A DNA stretch of 64,000 bases from Candidatus Omnitrophota bacterium. Lineage in GTDB: Bacteria; Omnitrophota; Gorgyraeia; Gorgyraeales; Gorgyraeaceae. The notes beneath the pieces are model-generated. The model had not been told where the DNA came from. It saw nothing but the letters and a program-made list of their open reading frames with translations, and searched no databases. The stretch is taken from contig JBDRJN010000002.1 in the NCBI GenBank assembly GCA_043814965.1, positions 39,984 to 103,983 of the forward strand, given 5' to 3'. A program made the position numbers and the translations under genes. The first letter of the stretch is position 1, and the number at the start of each line of letters is the position of its first letter. This document shows, one piece after another, positions 2,294 through 61,488 of the stretch.

Positions 2294-2869
2294 ATGAAAG
2301 AAGAAGATCAAAAACAAAGAATAAAGGACATAAAAGAGATATCCATCGCGATAGATACGTGGGATGATATCTTCTCGGATTTTGACCCAAGGCCTATGAA
2401 CGAGAGGGCATTGTCAGAGGATTTTAAGTCAGAGATAGCAAAAAGATATAGGGAGACCAGGAAGGGAGATTTTTTAGTCACTATATTTGCCCCAAATTCT
2501 TTAAATGACGGAAAATCCGAGAAGATCGTCATCCAGAGGCTTAAGAGGCATTTCAAGCACAAGGCGATGCAGAGTAAGAAAGAGATCTATGGTATAAGGA
2601 TCAGGGGAGTCTTTTTTGTGATAACCGGGATAATGTTCCTGGGTTTCTTGACGCTCGCAACATACCGCAAGCTTTTTAGAGATTTTACTATAGACATGCT
2701 AGGTATAATACTTTTGCCTCTGGGCTGGTTCGGGGTGTGGGAAGGTTTTTCAAAGATAGTAGATACGTCCATTTCTTTTATACAGGATCAAACCTTGTAC
2801 GATAAGCTCTCCAAAGCAAATTATAGATTTAAATATATAGAGGATGCTCCTAAAAAAGATGCTGTTTAA
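2294..2869 (+). CDS. Hypothetical membrane protein (2 TM helices in the C-terminal half)
   Basis: ORF with hydrophobic segments VFFVITGIMFLGFLTLA and MLGIILLPLGWFGVW. No recognisable family. Confidence 0.5.
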   Translation: MKEEDQKQRIKDIKEISIAIDTWDDIFSDFDPRPMNERALSEDFKSEIAKRYRETRKGDFLVTIFAPNSLNDGKSEKIVIQRLKRHFKHKAMQSKKEIYGIRIRGVFFVITGIMFLGFLTLATYRKLFRDFTIDMLGIILLPLGWFGVWEGFSKIVDTSISFIQDQTLYDKLSKANYRFKYIEDAPKKDAV

Positions 2870-3401
2870 AGAGCTTATATCTAACCGCAGGACACTCAGG
2901 AAATATTCCTCGGAAACTGTTCCGAGAGAAATCATAGACAGATGCCTTGACGCAGCGCGTCTTGCGCCTTCTGCCTGCAACAGCCAGCCATGGTATTTTG
3001 TAGTCATAGATGACGAGGGCTTAAGGAAGCGTGTTGGAGAGGCTGCCTTTTCAGGCGTATATTCTATGAATAGTTTTGCAAGGTCTGCGCCTATATTAAT
3101 AATAGTAGTGAGAGACTGCACAAAATATATAACAAAGCTTGGAGGATTCTTGAGGAAAGTTAATTTTAGCCTTATTGACATAGGTATCTCCTGCCAGAAT
3201 CTTGTTATGCAAGGAGAAGAAGAATCGCTCGGCAGCTGTTACCTGGGGTGGTTTGATGAAAAAAGAGTAAAAGGTATTTTAAATATCCCGAAAAATAAAA
3301 AAATAGACCTAATGATAAGCCTCGGTTACCCTGAAAAAGAAGAAAGGCCCATCAAAGAAAAGCTCCCTCTCGATAAAATAAGGTCCTTTAATAAAATCTA
3401 G
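2844..3401 (+). CDS. Nitroreductase-family flavoprotein
   Basis: RCLDAARLAPSACNSQPWYFVVI is nitroreductase-like, and the C-terminal GYP..E motif fits. The true start may be ATG 2859. Overlaps the upstream ORF. Confidence 0.8.
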   Translation: MLLKKMLFKELISNRRTLRKYSSETVPREIIDRCLDAARLAPSACNSQPWYFVVIDDEGLRKRVGEAAFSGVYSMNSFARSAPILIIVVRDCTKYITKLGGFLRKVNFSLIDIGISCQNLVMQGEEESLGSCYLGWFDEKRVKGILNIPKNKKIDLMISLGYPEKEERPIKEKLPLDKIRSFNKI

Positions 3402-3461
3402 ATCTTACTATATTATAAAGAGCAATAACGAAAACATTTTCGATGTGGATTGGGCACAGTC

Positions 3462-3633
3462 TTTTTTTATTGGTGAGAGTGCCTAGCAAAAAGCCTTTTT
3501 GTTTTGCGAAACACATAGATAATGCACTACAATTTAGATTGCCTGTCAAAACAAAACGGAGCGAAGCCCAACTTTACAAAACACTGATTCTGGCGCAGCG
3601 TCTTTTTGAAAGGCACTCTCACCAATAAAAAAA
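3462..3633. repeat. Structured repeat element, copy A (candidate ncRNA; see copy B at 59221-59340)
   Basis: A 23-bp perfect outer stem (3462-3484 pairs with 3611-3633) encloses a conserved core AAAAAGCCTTTTTGTTTTGCGAAAC..TGCCTGTCAAAACAAAACG. The inner ttttgtttt/aaaacaaaa stem shows compensatory changes in copy B. It lies between convergent genes. Confidence 0.5.
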
Positions 3634-3680: not shown

Positions 3681-6161
3681 TCAGACTCTTTTCTGTTGGC
3701 TTTCTAGATAGACATCTATGTTATTAATTGGTCTATTTGATGTAAGCTTTAGGAAGGTTTTCTTTTTTATAGGCGTATCTTTTGCGATACGCTCATTTAT
3801 AAGGACCTTTAATACTCTGTATTCTCCAAAATCAAGCCTCTCTGGATTGCGGTAGGTTATGTTTAAGCGCCTATTTAAAAAACTTGTCTCCAGGGAGATG
3901 GTCCCGGATGATTTGAACTGTTCTTTTACTAATTTCGGTTCTATCACAAGGTCTCCCATGTCTCCACGTACCCCGAAGACCTGTGTAATGAGCGTCAGCA
4001 TAAACCAGCTTGCGGAACCAGTAAGGTATGAATACATGCCTCTACCATCACTATTAAAATATTCAGGCAGGCATGGATAGATATTGCTTAGCTTGGTATT
4101 TTTGGACATATTGTATATGGAGTTCAGGACCTCGAAACCTTCTTTTACGAAGGCCCTTTTATATAATGAATAAGCGAACATTACGTTCATGTGGCTGAAA
4201 AACGCGCCATTCTCTTTTTCACCATATGCAAAACTAAACGCTCTTCCAAGCTCAGGATATATATCCTTAAAATCAGTATTAAGCCTGAAGCCTTTAAGGC
4301 CTTTATCCCATAGATATCTTTTAACGCTTTTATATATCTTTTTTATTTTTATAGGCTCTGCCACCCCGCTCATAATGGGGAATACCTGTCCGGTAAGGGT
4401 CATCCTGACGCCTTTTTTATTATTGCCTTCGACTTTCTTTGAAGAGTTGTCGTAGTAGCCATTAAAAAAACTATAGCCTGACTTTACAGTAAGCCACTCA
4501 TTTTTATTTATATTCTTTTTTAATCCTTCAGCTTTTTTTCTGAGCCATGTTATGGTATTTTTTTTATAATTTATCTTTTCAAGAAGGTTCGATAGCTCTA
4601 TCATATTGCCGATATAGGCAGCTGTAAATGCTACGCTCTCGCCATATTTATCAGCCATATCAAGCCCATCGTTCCAGTCGCCCCCCTCCAATAGGAAATT
4701 ACCATGGCGGGATATCTTGGAAAGCTCTCTTTTTATCTCTAGGAGTATATGATCAAGTACAGTATCTTTCTTTTTGCTTTCAAAATAGCCTACTTTTTCG
4801 AAGAGGATGCCAGTGTCCCCTGTCTGATTGATATATAGGTTGAGTGTTATAAACGGCCACAGGCCATGGTCCATCCATATCCTCTTGATATTATTTCTGT
4901 CGGGTATGAATTCCCCTAGTTTTTTGCCTATTATAGTGGCATTTGAACCATCTATACGTACACCCTTGAAGTTATTTAAAAGTATATTCCTGACGTCTCT
5001 GGGTGAGATAAGTAGGAGCGTAAGACAATCCTGCCATAGGTCGCGCCAGCCTCTCCCGCCCCTACCATAATCAAAATCAGGCAGGAATGAACACCCGAAT
5101 ATCTTCCTTAAGGTAGGCTGCAGCATCACCCAGTTTACCCATCTATCGAAATCATTGTCTTTTGTAGAGAGTTTTGCAGAGCTTACTACATTTTTCCAAT
5201 ATTTTTTAGTTGAGGCCAGGCTTGAGCGTATCTTCTGAACGGAGTTATATTTTTTTAATATCTGTATCGGGTCTTTTTTTTGGCTGATGCCAGCTATTGC
5301 TATATAGTAAACTGATCTATCAGGGGAGAGAAGGGTATTTTTAAATTTTAAGGCGCCTATAGCTTCTTTACCTTGCATGTTCTTTATGTCTATTGATTTA
5401 TCTTTGATGAGAGACATGGGCCTTTCCAGGTTTCCGCTTTCCCCAACAAAACTCTCTATTGTAGGATAGATCTTTAAAGGAGTTTTTCCCAGGCCGCTCG
5501 CGCCTAGTACAAAATAAGAGGTGTGGTTTACTTTATGGCCTTTCTCATAAAAGCTCATAGTAGGAGTCACTATGACCCCGTTTTTATGTAATTTTATGCG
5601 GTTCAAAAGAGAACTTACATGCCTATGGTCTCGCAGCCTATCCGCAGAACGAGCGAATATAGGTATAGCTATAGTAGGTTGTATATTTAATCTCTTCCTA
5701 GAGGTATTTGTGATCTTTATTAGCTCTAATTCTACAGCATCATCACTGATCGGCGCAAAATTTGTAAATTCCACTTTAAGCCCTGATCTTTTATTTATCC
5801 TGGTAAGTTTATGGTATAGAAAGCCTCCTTCTACATAGGAATTGGTAACCTCTCCTGACGCAGCTGACCAAAGAGAGTTATTATTTATCATTATCCAGAG
5901 ATTACGGTTGTACCTGGAATCTCTGAGGTCTTCAGTGGATTGGGGCACTGTGAGGAATGAATGTAGGCCTAGTTTTATATCGCCATGCAGCGTAGGGGTA
6001 ATGGATGAAAGCACTCCGTTGGGGCTGCAAAGAGGGAAATAGAGCCTGCTTATCTTATGAGGGTCTTTTGCGATAAAAGTACCTAAATCATCTATAAAGC
6101 GCCAGAAAGGTTTTTTTGAGATATTTTTTTTCATTTTTTTCACCTTTACCATTTTTCCCAA
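3681..6161 (-). CDS. Large glycoside hydrolase/phosphorylase, GH94-like (alpha/alpha)6-barrel family (cellobiose/chitobiose-phosphorylase-like)
   Basis: 826 aa. Motifs RGGRGWRDLWQD and LEGGDWNDGLDMA resemble the GH94 catalytic region. Family assignment is from memory and unverified. Confidence 0.55.
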   Translation of the reverse strand: MGKMVKVKKMKKNISKKPFWRFIDDLGTFIAKDPHKISRLYFPLCSPNGVLSSITPTLHGDIKLGLHSFLTVPQSTEDLRDSRYNRNLWIMINNNSLWSAASGEVTNSYVEGGFLYHKLTRINKRSGLKVEFTNFAPISDDAVELELIKITNTSRKRLNIQPTIAIPIFARSADRLRDHRHVSSLLNRIKLHKNGVIVTPTMSFYEKGHKVNHTSYFVLGASGLGKTPLKIYPTIESFVGESGNLERPMSLIKDKSIDIKNMQGKEAIGALKFKNTLLSPDRSVYYIAIAGISQKKDPIQILKKYNSVQKIRSSLASTKKYWKNVVSSAKLSTKDNDFDRWVNWVMLQPTLRKIFGCSFLPDFDYGRGGRGWRDLWQDCLTLLLISPRDVRNILLNNFKGVRIDGSNATIIGKKLGEFIPDRNNIKRIWMDHGLWPFITLNLYINQTGDTGILFEKVGYFESKKKDTVLDHILLEIKRELSKISRHGNFLLEGGDWNDGLDMADKYGESVAFTAAYIGNMIELSNLLEKINYKKNTITWLRKKAEGLKKNINKNEWLTVKSGYSFFNGYYDNSSKKVEGNNKKGVRMTLTGQVFPIMSGVAEPIKIKKIYKSVKRYLWDKGLKGFRLNTDFKDIYPELGRAFSFAYGEKENGAFFSHMNVMFAYSLYKRAFVKEGFEVLNSIYNMSKNTKLSNIYPCLPEYFNSDGRGMYSYLTGSASWFMLTLITQVFGVRGDMGDLVIEPKLVKEQFKSSGTISLETSFLNRRLNITYRNPERLDFGEYRVLKVLINERIAKDTPIKKKTFLKLTSNRPINNIDVYLESQQKRV

Positions 6162-11468: not shown

Positions 11469-11569
11469 TTTATTCCTATCGTGTTCTTAACTGGAGAGGC
11501 TTTTCAAAAAGACGTTCGGCCTATATTGTAATTTGTAAATGTGGGCCTCACCAGTGTTTATATATACTA

Positions 11570-11595
11570 GTAGGGGAGCTTTAAAGCTCCCCTAC
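11570..11595. repeat. REP-like perfect palindromic hairpin GTAGGGGAGCTTTAAAGCTCCCCTAC (copy 1 of the family)
   Basis: 26-nt perfect palindrome. It sits in a 130-bp element also seen at 16881-16995. A second 9-bp hairpin lies at 11639-11661. Confidence 0.6.
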
Positions 11596-11713
11596 TAAAG
11601 AAAAGGTTTAGGCGAGAGCGAAAAAGAAAATAGAGTAACCCTGCACCATACTGGTGCAGGGCACGCTGGTGAAATTTAACGTTCTCGAAAACAGCGCTTG
11701 CCCGCAGACAAGG

Positions 11714-16478: not shown

Positions 16479-16880
16479 TTAAATATTTTTATAAACTAAA
16501 AAAGAGCCTTGTCCGCTCATGTGAAAATTTCCTTTCGTTCTGAGATTTCAAGACTCGAGGTCGCCTTTTATTCCTCATTTTGTCGGGGCTCGAAAAACTT
16601 GCCACCACAAAATCTGGCATGGTGGCTTCGGACAGTTTCGAGCCTTTTAAAAACCGACAAAATGTTTTATAAAAGGCTAAATTTTCAAATTCGCTTACAA
16701 GCCTCTTTTTTAGTTTATAACTGTGTTAGTTTATTTAATGGATTTGTCGATTTTAGTGCCTGAGTAGGCCTAAGAAAAGCCTTGTTTTTTTGAGCGGGCC
16801 CCGTACCAAATTTATTATACTTAATGTAACTGGTATAAATTTTGATACGGGGCGGGCATGGTTCGCCCTCGCATCTACTG

Positions 16881-41199: not shown

Positions 41200-41311
41200 A
41201 AGATACAAAATTAAATATCCCGCGCAACTGGTGTCTTACATGGGAAACCATGAGGAAGCGCGTAAAAAATAAACGGTAAATCGTCCACCTGGGTTTTATA
41301 ACCCGGGTTTT

Positions 41312-51203: not shown

Positions 51204-51290
51204 AAGTCTTTATATATTATACACATATAAAGACTGGTAGTACAACATTTTTTACGATATAGATTATGTAATGTCAATGGATTAAAATTG

Positions 51291-51434
51291 TTCTTGGTAA
51301 GCATACGAAAAGACGCTTGATTACCCCAGCGTGGTAATCTTCGCTCGGTGCCGCTTCTCGCTCATCCGCCATAAATCTTGGCGGATACCATGCCCGCTCA
51401 AACCGGCAACGCTTTTCTTTAGGCTTACCAAGAA
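51291..51434. other. GC-rich structured element flanked by 12-bp inverted repeats (candidate ncRNA or MITE)
   Basis: ttcttggtaagc (51291-51302) pairs with gcttaccaagaa (51423-51434). Internal hairpins lie at 51319-51339 and 51366-51384. About 50% GC in a 35% GC genome. Confidence 0.4.
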
Positions 51435-51475
51435 TAATTGCGGTTTGGCGTATTATTTAAGCATTAGATTGTACA

Positions 51476-58551: not shown

Positions 58552-59190
58552 ATGAAACCTATAAAGATAAGAGTAGTAGAGATAATAAAGACCTTACGGA
58601 AATTATATCCAAAAAGCCGCACAGCTTTATGCTATAGGTCTCCTTTGGAGATACTTGTGGCGACTATACTTTCAGCTCAGTGTACGGATAAGAGAGTCAA
58701 TAAAGTTACCCCGGGCCTATTTAAAAAATATAAAAATGTATATGGTTTTTCCAGGGCTAAACAAGCTAGTCTTGAAAAAGATATCCACTCGTGCGGTTTT
58801 TTTAGATCTAAGGCAAAAAATATTATAGCCAGTTCCAGGAGGATCGTAGAAGTTTTCAGCGGAAAGGTCCCGGACACAATAGATGACCTATTGACCCTTC
58901 CGGGAGTTGCGCGTAAGACAGCAAATATAGTTTTATCGAGTGCGTTTAAAAAATCAGAAGGTATAGCAGTAGATACCCATGTAAAGAGGCTTTCCGGAAG
59001 ATTAGGCCTTAGTAAAAATCTCGATCCAAATAAGATCGAGGAGGACCTATTAAAAATAGTGCCTAAAAAATACTGGATAGATTTTAATTATATATTAGTG
59101 GACCATGGCCGCGCGATCTGTGATGCAAGGAAACCGCTATGCAGTGAATGCGCTATTAGGAAGCTTTGCCCCTCGCTTAATAAGATTTGA
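58552..59190 (+). CDS. nth: Endonuclease III
   Basis: HhH-GPD segment LPGVARKTANIVL and a [4Fe-4S] loop CDARKPLCSECAIRKLC. Confidence 0.85.
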   Translation: MKPIKIRVVEIIKTLRKLYPKSRTALCYRSPLEILVATILSAQCTDKRVNKVTPGLFKKYKNVYGFSRAKQASLEKDIHSCGFFRSKAKNIIASSRRIVEVFSGKVPDTIDDLLTLPGVARKTANIVLSSAFKKSEGIAVDTHVKRLSGRLGLSKNLDPNKIEEDLLKIVPKKYWIDFNYILVDHGRAICDARKPLCSECAIRKLCPSLNKI

Positions 59191-59220: not shown

Positions 59221-59340
59221 TTTTGATTTGGCGAGGTCTGAAAAAAGCCTTTTTATTTTGCGAAACCTATAGATCTTGCATTACATAATATACTGCCTGT
59301 CAAAATAAAACGTCTTTTTGAAGACCTTGCCGAATCAAAA
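59221..59340. repeat. Structured repeat element, copy B (same family as 3462-3633)
   Basis: Outer stem ttttgatttggcgaggtctgaaaaaagcc pairs with gtctttttgaagaccttgccgaatcaaaa. Conserved core AAAAAGCCTTTTTATTTTGCGAAAC..TGCCTGTCAAAATAAAACG with a compensatory G-to-A/C-to-T pair relative to copy A. Ends 44 nt before the radical SAM gene. Confidence 0.5.
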
Positions 59341-59383: not shown

Positions 59384-60391
59384 ATGTTAAAAGAAGCATT
59401 ATTATACGATAAGTTAAGTGATTCGAAAGTGCAGTGCATATTGTGCAGGCATAATTGCACTATATTACCTGGTGAATTCGGAATATGCGGGGTCAGGAAG
59501 AATATAGATGGAAAACTTTACACTTATGCTTTCGGCAGTGTAATAGCTAGCCATGTTGATCCTGTCGAGAAAAAGCCTTTATATCATTTTTTACCCGGCT
59601 CGATGTCTTTTTCCATAGCTACTATAGGGTGCAATTTTAAATGTTCTTTCTGCCAGAACCACGAGATATCCCAGCGCTCATTTAAAGATGGAGAAAATGA
59701 AGGATATGCGATGTCTCCCGAGGAAGTAGCAAAAGAGGCAAAGAAGAATAATTGTAAGAGTGTATCCTATACATATACAGAGCCGACAATATTTTTTGAG
59801 TATGCTTATGAGTGTAGTAAACTTGCTAAAAAAGCAGGGCTTAAGAATGTCTTTGTCACCAACGGTTATATGACTGAAAAAGCGCTTAATATGATATCTC
59901 CGTATCTAGATGCATGCAATGTAGACTTAAAGAGCTTTAATAAAGGTTTCTATAAAAATATATGCGGCGCTGACCTTGATGGTGTCTTGGATTCAATAAG
60001 GATAATGAAAAAACAAGGCATTTGGATAGAGATAACTACTTTGGTCGTGACAGGAGAGAATGACTCAGAAAAGGAACTCAAAGATGTAGCTCGTTTTATA
60101 TCCAGCTTGGATAAAAATATCCCATGGCATGTAAGTAGATATCACCCTGATTATAAATATGTCAAAGGTGGGCCTACTCCTATAGAGAGATTGCGATTAG
60201 CAAGATCCATAGGTGAAAACGCGGGTCTTAGATATATATATCTAGGTAATGTCCTTGAAGGAGGAAACACTTATTGTTATAATTGTAGGAAGCTTCTAGT
60301 AGAAAGAGAAACATTCAGCGTAAGAGAAGGCTATGTAAGACAAAATAAATGCCCCAATTGTTCTAAGGAAATAGAAGGGAGATGGCAATGA
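59384..60391 (+). CDS. AmmeMemoRadiSam-type (PFL-activase-like) radical SAM enzyme
   Basis: N-terminal CILCRHNC and GCNFKCSFCQNHEIS clusters. No AMMECR1 or Memo gene adjacent. Confidence 0.75.
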   Translation: MLKEALLYDKLSDSKVQCILCRHNCTILPGEFGICGVRKNIDGKLYTYAFGSVIASHVDPVEKKPLYHFLPGSMSFSIATIGCNFKCSFCQNHEISQRSFKDGENEGYAMSPEEVAKEAKKNNCKSVSYTYTEPTIFFEYAYECSKLAKKAGLKNVFVTNGYMTEKALNMISPYLDACNVDLKSFNKGFYKNICGADLDGVLDSIRIMKKQGIWIEITTLVVTGENDSEKELKDVARFISSLDKNIPWHVSRYHPDYKYVKGGPTPIERLRLARSIGENAGLRYIYLGNVLEGGNTYCYNCRKLLVERETFSVREGYVRQNKCPNCSKEIEGRWQ

Positions 60392-61488
60392 AAAAAGCTA
60401 TTCTTGGAAATTTGGCTGAGGCCGGACAAAGCGCTTGGCTTGATAATATCAATAGGTCCATGTTAGAGTCCGGCAAATTGTCGGGCTTAGTATATCTTGG
60501 ATTACGCGGTATGACATCTAACCCAGCTATATTTGATAAATCTATACGCTTAAGTGATGATTATGATAGATATATAGAGGAATTGGCAAATGCTGGAAAA
60601 AGCGCATTCGAGATATATGACGCATTGACTATAAAAGATGTGCAAGATGCATCGGATATATTTAAACCTGTATATGAGAAGACCAATAGAGTAGACGGAT
60701 ATGTGAGTTTAGAGGTAAACCCAAAATTAGCTTTTAATAAAGAAGAGACTATAAAAGACGCCCTAAGACTTCATAAAAGCGTAAATAGGGAAAACGTAAT
60801 GTTCAAAATACCTGCGACAGATGAGGGATGCGCTGCTATAGAAGAATTATTGGGGCAAGGCATCAACATAAATGCAACGCTTATATTTTCTAGAGCGCAG
60901 TATATAAAAGTAGCAGATAGTTTTATAAAAGGCATAAGGAGATTTTTAAAAAAGGGAGGAGATATAACTAAAGTTCATTCTGTGGCAAGTGTATTTGTAA
61001 GCCGCATAGATTCAACTATTGATAAATTACTTGATGAAAAAGATGCTAAAGGCCTAGAAGGAAAGGCTGCTGTAGCAAATTCCAGAGCGATATATAAAAG
61101 TTATCTTGAGATCTTCGGAGAAAAGGATTTTAAGAGCTTAAAAGAAAAAGGCGCTAATATACAAAGGGTCTTATGGGCATCTACCAGCACAAAGAACCCT
61201 AATTACAGTGACCTTAAATATGTAGAGGAGCTGATAGGAAAAGATACTGTAAATACAATGCCGGACAATACGCTTGATGCATTTTTGGATCATGGCAGCG
61301 TAAAAGATGCATTAAATGGAGATCTTAGTGAAGACGATATTGCCATAGAAGAGTTAAACAAACTAGGTATCAATGTAGATGATGTATGTTTAACTCTTCT
61401 AAAGGACGGCCTCACAGCATTTGAAAAATCGTTCGACGCGCTTTTATCTTCGATAGAAAATAAAATAAAGGATTTGTGTAGTATATGA
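60382..61488 (+). CDS. tal: Transaldolase
   Basis: GMTSNPAIF, VSLEV, FKIPAT, TLIFS and VFVSRID motifs. 368 aa. Confidence 0.8.
   Translation: MAMKKAILGNLAEAGQSAWLDNINRSMLESGKLSGLVYLGLRGMTSNPAIFDKSIRLSDDYDRYIEELANAGKSAFEIYDALTIKDVQDASDIFKPVYEKTNRVDGYVSLEVNPKLAFNKEETIKDALRLHKSVNRENVMFKIPATDEGCAAIEELLGQGININATLIFSRAQYIKVADSFIKGIRRFLKKGGDITKVHSVASVFVSRIDSTIDKLLDEKDAKGLEGKAAVANSRAIYKSYLEIFGEKDFKSLKEKGANIQRVLWASTSTKNPNYSDLKYVEELIGKDTVNTMPDNTLDAFLDHGSVKDALNGDLSEDDIAIEELNKLGINVDDVCLTLLKDGLTAFEKSFDALLSSIENKIKDLCSI

Follow-up and report, generated by a model that had tools for sequence, protein, structure and literature searches.

Introduction

What is the palindromic element at positions 3462-3633 of the window, the 64,000-nucleotide stretch of an Omnitrophota contig analysed in this study? 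A preliminary description had read it as copy A of a candidate novel family of structured non-coding RNAs, with copy B (59221-59340) as the second copy. Omnitrophota have compact genomes, have not been cultivated and are often ultra-small (PMC10066038); a repeat family filling many of their short intergenic spacers is unexpected. The analysis described here indicates that the family most likely consists of Omnitrophota-specific, non-coding, intergenic nested-palindrome repeats, which would belong to the functional class of the REP/BIME-REPIN, ERIC, BOX and Correia repeats. The family is also of practical relevance to genome binners and annotators, as a marker that breaks assemblies and as a source of spurious small ORFs, such as the 61-aa call over copy A (3443-3628). 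Loci outside the window are labelled with L-numbers (L058, L040, L074 and so on).

Results

Structure of the unit and its copies in the window

Both copies proved to be real, with the boundaries given in Table 1. The outer stem of copy A is, as had been described, a perfect helix of 23 bp (3462-3484 with 3611-3633), and, with 94% complementarity, it continues to 32 nt (3462-3493 with 3602-3633). Its inner stem pairs ttttgtttt (3497-3505) with aaaacaaaa (3548-3556). The double change from a G-C to an A-T pair in copy B is also genuine, the inner stem there being ttttatttt with aaaataaaa. Compared with dinucleotide shuffles, the folding of copy A gave z = -7.0 as RNA and -7.2 as DNA, and that of copy B gave z = -8.1.

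Table 1. Positions of the family members and relatives in the window and of their parts.
Feature	Position	Strand	Remark
Copy A, canonical full-length inner module (172 nt; P1+P2+P3)	3462-3633	+	covariance model 131.5 bits
Copy A, P1 5' arm, 32 nt, outer 23 nt perfectly paired	3462-3493	+	repeat I3, 94% complementary
Copy A, P2 5' strand (CCTTTTTGTTTTGCG)	3494-3508	+	includes covarying positions 3495 and 3501
Copy A, P2 loop	3509-3543	+	variable middle; 3' end is the conserved TTGCC of YTGCCTGTCAAAA
Copy A, P2 3' strand (TGTCAAAACAAAACGG)	3544-3559	+	
Copy A, P3 arm, 42 nt	3559-3600	+	slightly degenerate GAGYGA-GGCC..loop..GGCC-GARCG
Copy A, P1 3' arm	3602-3633	+	
Copy B, P3-deleted derivative, 120 nt	59221-59340	+	covariance model 72.2 bits
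Copy B, P1	59221-59247 with 59313-59340	+	
Copy B, P2	59248-59262 with 59298-59312	+	
Copy C, fragment retaining P3 and the 3' arm	11496-11590	-	30.3 bits, E 2.5e-5
Framework-only relative, 154-bp nested palindrome between divergent genes	51286-51439	+	without the P1-P2-P3 module

The canonical unit of the family measures 158-187 nt and consists of a stem, P1, capped by a conserved three-way junction with two further helices, P2 and P3. P1 is 25-32 bp long and differs in sequence among the copies. P2 is a 14-bp helix, in which CNT.TTTRTTTTGCG pairs with TGTCAAAAYAAA.NNG, and closes a loop of about 36 nt. Family-wide conservation in this loop is confined to its two ends, TTTTGCG and YTGCCTGTCAAAA. 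These two parts of the core originally proposed therefore stood, while its TAGAT, TGCA and TACA blocks turned out not to be conserved. P3 reads GAGYGA-GGCC, then an A/C-rich loop whose length varies among the copies (20-45 nt), then GGCC-GARCG, with two G-A appositions adjoining the GGCC helix.

Copy B is 52 nt shorter than copy A. The difference had been ascribed to a 40-nt insertion in copy A, which has the polarity reversed: the segment concerned is the 42-nt helix P3, and it is deleted from copy B. A genome scan that did not depend on P3 recovered it in every other full copy, and 64 of the 65 hits of the covariance model described below also have it. Since nearly all other full copies have P3, copy B lost 42 nt and copy A gained nothing.

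Copy A is flanked by two genes that point towards it, one for a nitroreductase (2844-3401, +) and one for a GH94 protein (3681-6161, -). Copy B is preceded by the gene for endonuclease III (58552-59190, +) and followed by one for a radical-SAM protein (59384-60391, +). The endonuclease III of the window has a counterpart with 100% identity in a Candidatus Omnitrophota MAG; an exact look-up of the window proteins flanking the copies matched no record.

Copies A and B have further relatives in the window. A fragment, copy C, and a framework-only palindrome were also found (Table 1). Ahead of copy C (11600-11665) lie left-flank motifs of the framework, CCAGCGTG..TTACTC..CGCTC. The order on the minus strand of 11496-11665 is the left flank of the framework, a small hairpin (CCCTGCACC..GGTGCAGGG), an unrelated hairpin, P3 and the 3' arm; a hairpin identical to the small one occurs in L074.

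Modular construction

In several genomes, the P1-P2-P3 unit is enclosed by the larger palindromic framework just mentioned. The framework has an outer 28-bp stem, a side hairpin (loop CCCAGCGTGG) and an internal loop that is asymmetric, its two sides carrying CTCGCTC and ACCRTGCCCGCTCG. Together, framework and unit fold into a rod of about 290 nt whose minimum free energy is -161 kcal/mol (z = -14.8), and a comparable hairpin of 284 nt in L027 reached -165 kcal/mol.

The two parts also occur separately and in other arrangements. The framework is found without the unit in L074 and at 51286-51439 of the window. The latter is built of an outer 20-bp stem, a side hairpin (loop CCCCAGCGTGG), CTCGCTC, a small central hairpin and ACCATGCCCGCTCA, a design that it shares with L074:746-900. 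The unit is found without a clear framework in, for example, copy B, and it is flipped relative to the framework in L051, in L012/L045 and, tentatively, in copy A. In a variant at L004:4860-5100, P1, P2 and P3 are kept and the P2 loop is replaced by a small framework hairpin in reverse orientation. The framework-only, unit-only, flipped and loop-replaced forms show that the system is modular and nested.

At L017:1130-1200 and in the right halves of L013/L040, L039, L050, L065 and L071, a repeat of a second palindromic family (cattgcgagg..., ccttcgacaagctcagga...) interrupts either the P3 loop or the stretch that separates P3 from the 3' arm. The repeats of these genomes thus insert into one another.

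Extent of the family

A pattern anchored on the two core ends retrieved 29 loci in five MAGs, all of which are Omnitrophota or unclassified PVC bins. A second pattern, anchored on the P2/P3 junction alone, retrieved 44 metagenome loci, 42 of them real. A covariance model, built from 22 copies from other genomes, was then used in the search for further copies that had been recommended at the outset, and it found 65 full copies in at least five Omnitrophota MAGs and in metagenome contigs. Two copies lie head to head at L003:800-1138 with 60 nt between them, and two direct copies at L043:6352-7876 enclose 1.2 kb with ordinary genes, one DUF523-like and one encoding a HAD hydrolase.

The Rfam scan, likewise recommended, gave no match to an Rfam 15 family at copies A and B. 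Permissive Rfam scans of the element yielded generic long-hairpin (miRNA precursor) matches alone, far below threshold. Searches of viral contigs, plasmids and phages gave no match to the family, and an origin from a phage or plasmid was rejected on these grounds. Literature searches on Omnitrophota repeats or RNAs turned up nothing relevant. As far as the searched databases and literature go, the repeat family is undescribed.

Covariation and evolution of the stems

In an alignment of 63 distinct copies, standard pairs occupy 95-96% of the cells, compared with 79-80% after column shuffles and at most 57% in slid controls. Double changes were observed in 21-22 of the 36 pairs, across P1, P2 and P3, and nearly every pair of P1 covaries; these covariation figures are somewhat inflated by the fitting of the alignment to the model, and the key pairs are visible in the raw listings too. 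The observed covariation measures were reached in none of 500 shuffles. The P2 inner-stem pair that differs between copies A and B is A-U in 42 copies, G-C in 20 and unpaired in one, and a covarying pair of P3 is C-G in 31 copies and U-A in 29. An extra pair at the junction was detected by mutual information (T-A 28, C-G 20, A-T 13). On this point the preliminary description is supported: the family is real, structured and multi-copy, it covaries strongly, and its apical domain is conserved.

The arms and the apex evolve differently. P1 stems are 94.7% complementary inside a copy and their arms are 32-41% identical between copies, while the apical segments are 83% identical between copies, a figure partly raised by the way in which copies were ascertained. 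Copies in the same genome can have near-identical P1, P2 and P3, with outer stems that differ by matched substitutions on both arms. The idea that a small mobile core hit unrelated target hairpins was rejected as the main cause of this pattern: in one subfamily the stems are homologous (GTYTYYYNGNCAG...), with matched substitutions. Such fast, compensated stems around an invariant head in one genome should help to separate RNA-level selection from palindrome maintenance at the DNA level.

Covariation had been taken as the hallmark of a functional RNA or structured DNA element. It is real and strong here, but it does not by itself indicate RNA, because compensatory changes across the hairpin are common in REPINs, which are mobile DNA (PMC3116915).

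Genomic distribution

None of 69 copies lies inside an ORF of at least 120 aa. Between co-directional genes the element has the same orientation as the genes in 17 cases and the opposite one in 13; seven copies lie between divergent genes and three between convergent genes. At least 12 copies lie within 150 nt of a contig end, as expected of multi-copy repeats. The 104 neighbouring proteins belong to 142 Pfam families and represent unrelated housekeeping genes. A nitroreductase gene adjoins four copies and cysS three or four, these recurrent neighbours coming in part from orthologous loci, and a functional tie to the neighbour genes was rejected in view of the 142 families.

Presence of the element varies at syntenic sites. 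The syntenic contigs L058 and L040 (82-86% amino-acid identity) show reciprocal presence and absence: the spacer after a 670-aa gene holds a 290-nt composite in L058 and a plain hairpin in L040, and in the spacer after a 559-aa gene a copy is found in L040 but is lacking from L058. The spacer between nth and the radical-SAM gene is occupied by copy B in the window, by a framework without the unit in L074 (69-71% identity) and by an unrelated palindrome in L076. The latter, at L076:3140-3195, is perfect and GC-rich (TTAACCACCCCCACCGCGGGGGTG..) and fills the spacer orthologous to that of copy B. L074 also has, directly upstream of its radical-SAM gene (940-1030), a GC-rich, structured-looking segment closed by CAGCGGGT..ACCCGCTG, which has no counterpart in the window. 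Some spacers are shared by distant species: the one between cysS and tmk, for example, is occupied in both L048 and L064, which come from species with 66-73% identical proteins; this shared occupancy could reflect retention by function.

No transposase, RAYT or recombinase was present among the listed families of the 104 neighbour proteins at the retrieved loci, and a tblastn search of these loci with an approximate IS200 TnpA query gave no match (best E 1.6). The stem feet show no consistent direct repeat. Neither a target-site duplication nor a clean excision footprint was seen. The CGCTC on both sides of framework-embedded copies could be a target-site duplication.

Discussion

Comparison with known repeats and RNAs

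Classical MITEs carry terminal inverted repeats that are conserved between copies and shared with a parent IS, and they are flanked by a target-site duplication. The Omnitrophota element resembles them in being small, non-coding and multi-copy, with a presence that varies between relatives. The earlier statement that it is not a MITE of this kind nevertheless holds, given the low identity of the arms compared with the apex and the lack of a parent IS at the retrieved loci.

REPINs and REP/BIMEs are short, multi-copy and non-coding and lie strictly outside genes; as single-stranded DNA or mRNA they fold into a long hairpin, and they are arranged in higher-order mosaics and maintained over long periods within lineages (PMC3116915). 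The combination of a single-strand hairpin, compensatory changes and an extragenic position is found in the Omnitrophota element as well. In REPINs, however, the 16-mer REP ends with their GTAG-type motif are conserved and the middle varies, REPs being palindromes of 20-40 nt that stand in inverted pairs with the motif at the 5' side, whereas here the apex is conserved and the arms vary; no GTAG-like motif is present at the ends of the Omnitrophota element, and its conserved part is central. Its unit is also larger (160-300 nt) and has a three-way junction. REPINs are mobilised by RAYTs, Y1 HUH transposases whose genes usually have the repeats on their flanks, and no RAYT was found beside the copies at the retrieved loci.

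Correia elements (NEMIS) of Neisseria consist of inverted repeats and a conserved core, and the hairpin of their transcript is cleaved by RNase III (PMC2649163). They too are intergenic, with 100-160 bp and inverted repeats around the core, and they come in a long form and a short one that lacks about 50 bp internally (PMC2649163), which parallels the difference between copies A and B. The 26-bp inverted repeats of Correia elements are conserved between copies, unlike the Omnitrophota arms, and their TA duplication, IHF and promoter motifs were not found here. By-eye inspection of the family for the IHF site (WATCAANNNNTTR) showed it not to be consistently present. ERIC/IRU and the pneumococcal BOX, RUP and SPRITE repeats are imperfect palindromes in transcribed intergenic regions, present in both orientations and built of modules with discrete insertion and deletion variants (PMC3049150, PMC2229807). 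They have no sequence relation to the Omnitrophota family, come from a different phylum and are conserved over their whole length, in contrast to the hypervariable, compensated stems and nested shells described above.

The HEARO/omega RNA of IscB and the IS605-orfB RNAs share with the element a large, highly structured, multi-copy design with conserved loops and covarying stems. These RNAs are found beside a gene for IscB or TnpB, or originate from one, and are recognised by Rfam models; the Omnitrophota element has neither an IscB/TnpB neighbour among the listed families nor an Rfam match. Three further candidates were rejected. The hammerhead ribozyme, suggested by CGAAAC ... GUC, has a CUGANGA box and three helices around its core; no conserved CUGANGA was present 5' of GAAAC, and Rfam gave no match even at E <= 10. 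Integron attC sites have conserved R''/R' core sites (RYYYAAC/GTTRRRY) at their ends, stand in cassette arrays and have IntI nearby, while the ends of our element are variable, its neighbours are housekeeping genes and it forms no arrays. A dif/Xer site was considered since the loop of copy B resembles the XerD arm TATATTATGTAA, which copy A and the rest of the family lack.

A dispersed DNA repeat or an RNA gene

We favour, with modest confidence, the interpretation that copy A is a palindromic intergenic repeat of the REP/ERIC/Correia type that acts via its folded single strand, effects on transcripts being secondary. The original proposal of a candidate novel non-coding RNA family was right as regards a novel, structured, multi-copy family, but the element is independent of orientation, intergenic, breaks assemblies and varies at syntenic sites. 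A DNA repeat is preferred to an RNA gene because of the intergenic position, random orientation, location at contig ends, presence and absence among relatives, nested and occasionally flipped modules, lack of a family-wide promoter or terminator signal and weak strand bias.

Since no partner enzyme was found beside the copies, we infer the following mechanism. The repeat would propagate and persist at the DNA level as a non-autonomous module, and the folded single strand would be what matters. The conserved apical domain may serve as the recognition surface for a putative trans-acting transposase, recombinase or nucleoid protein; if such a partner enzyme exists, the head domain, at 3494-3600 of copy A, offers a defined handle for finding it. 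The stems would need pairing alone and could drift through compensated changes, the source of which might be selection on the hairpin or template switching from arm to arm. Read-through from neighbour genes would turn the 25-30 bp perfect duplex into double-stranded RNA, which might be cut by RNase III or stabilise transcripts, as in Correia and ERIC repeats.

It is worth noting that the conserved apex and variable arms count against the DNA-repeat interpretation, being the reverse of what is seen in MITEs and REPINs. A conserved apex with variable arms is the look of structured RNAs. Each copy might accordingly be transcribed into a strand-specific, rod-like non-coding RNA of 170-300 nt with a three-way-junction head, for example a protein-binding scaffold or the partner of a mobile-element enzyme. 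We regard this as possible but rather unlikely. The conserved loops with variable, compensated stems at every level and the extra covarying pair at the junction speak for it. So do the non-Watson-Crick features, namely the tandem G-A by the GGCC helix and a G-U in P2, which are strand-asymmetric and conserved on the plus strand only, and a weak excess of wobble pairs on that strand (stem mismatches G-T 35 vs A-C 19, p = 0.04, uncorrected for relatedness). In addition, genomes that share about 70% identity in their Nth proteins have a conserved core in common, and the RNA would be new, since it has no Rfam match. On the other hand, G-U pairs make up just about 2% of the stem cells and are rarer than plain mismatches (about 7%). 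The random orientation to co-directional genes and the variable flanks mean that there is no conserved upstream promoter; a promoter-like match inside the element does not exceed what shuffled loops give, whichever strand is taken, and no terminator was found. The variable presence at syntenic sites and the persistence of deleted and fragmentary copies also argue against an RNA gene.

The same features could be combined in another way, which we consider unlikely. The copies might be DNA-encoded rod-shaped RNAs or single-stranded DNA intermediates of a self-propagating system, with a head recognised by an enzyme. The module would enter existing hairpins at the apex, or take the place of the apex, and so build the nested shells, and each round of copying would restore the complementarity of the stems, perhaps through fold-back templated synthesis.

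Switches, regulatory hairpins and coding sequence

An inverton, a flip-flop switch with the P1 arms as its inverted repeats and a promoter in the loop, is quite improbable. It was suggested by TTGCGA-18-TACAAT in the P2 loop of copy A and by the occurrence of the P1-P2-P3 module in both orientations relative to the asymmetric motifs of the framework. A promoter in the P2 loop was rejected: the opposite strand holds a perfect TTGACA, but when 65 distinct cores were compared with shuffled loops, neither strand had a better top -10 match at the appropriate spacing. The inverted repeats differ among copies, so that there is no common recombinase site, and no invertase is among the listed neighbour families. 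Loci represented in different samples have one orientation (L012/L045, L001/L053, L019/L059), and some copies lie between convergent genes.

It is very improbable that the element is an ordinary transcription terminator or another fixed cis-regulatory hairpin of the flanking genes. It is always intergenic, and a plain hairpin fills the spacer at syntenic 'empty' sites, which speaks for such a role. Intrinsic terminators are GC-rich hairpins with a short loop and a U tract behind them. No U tract, however, follows the stem on either strand; copy A has a T run 5' and an A run 3', and copies A and B contain no intrinsic terminator sites. Canonical hairpin-plus-U terminators stand beside the element in the same genomes, seven copies lie between divergent gene starts, and the neighbour genes are functionally unrelated.

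That copy A is a protein-coding gene, or a chance palindrome, can practically be dismissed: the 61-aa ORF is callable but is an artefact, as had been suspected, with no Pfam match, a palindromic site, a second, overlapping ORF on the opposite strand, copy length differences that are not multiples of three, an ATG that is not conserved and a reading frame not preserved among copies, and chance is excluded by 65 homologous copies and by z-scores from -7 to -18. An ATG-led ORF runs through P3 in one subfamily; its coding potential was rejected as the ATG is not conserved.

Other structured elements in the window

A separate nested palindrome of 232 bp lies at 16489-16720, flanked by two plus-strand genes. 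It has outer arms of 42 nt, inner arms of 24 nt and a hairpin at its centre. The architecture is similar to that of the family, to which it may be related; the score with model R1 is only 11.6 bits. Two more short, near-perfect palindromes with 18-nt arms lie at 87-126 and 61346-61401. The sole Rfam match in the window is a ZMP/ZTP riboswitch (RF01750) at 41214-41301 on the plus strand, with 43.6 bits against a gathering score of 39.
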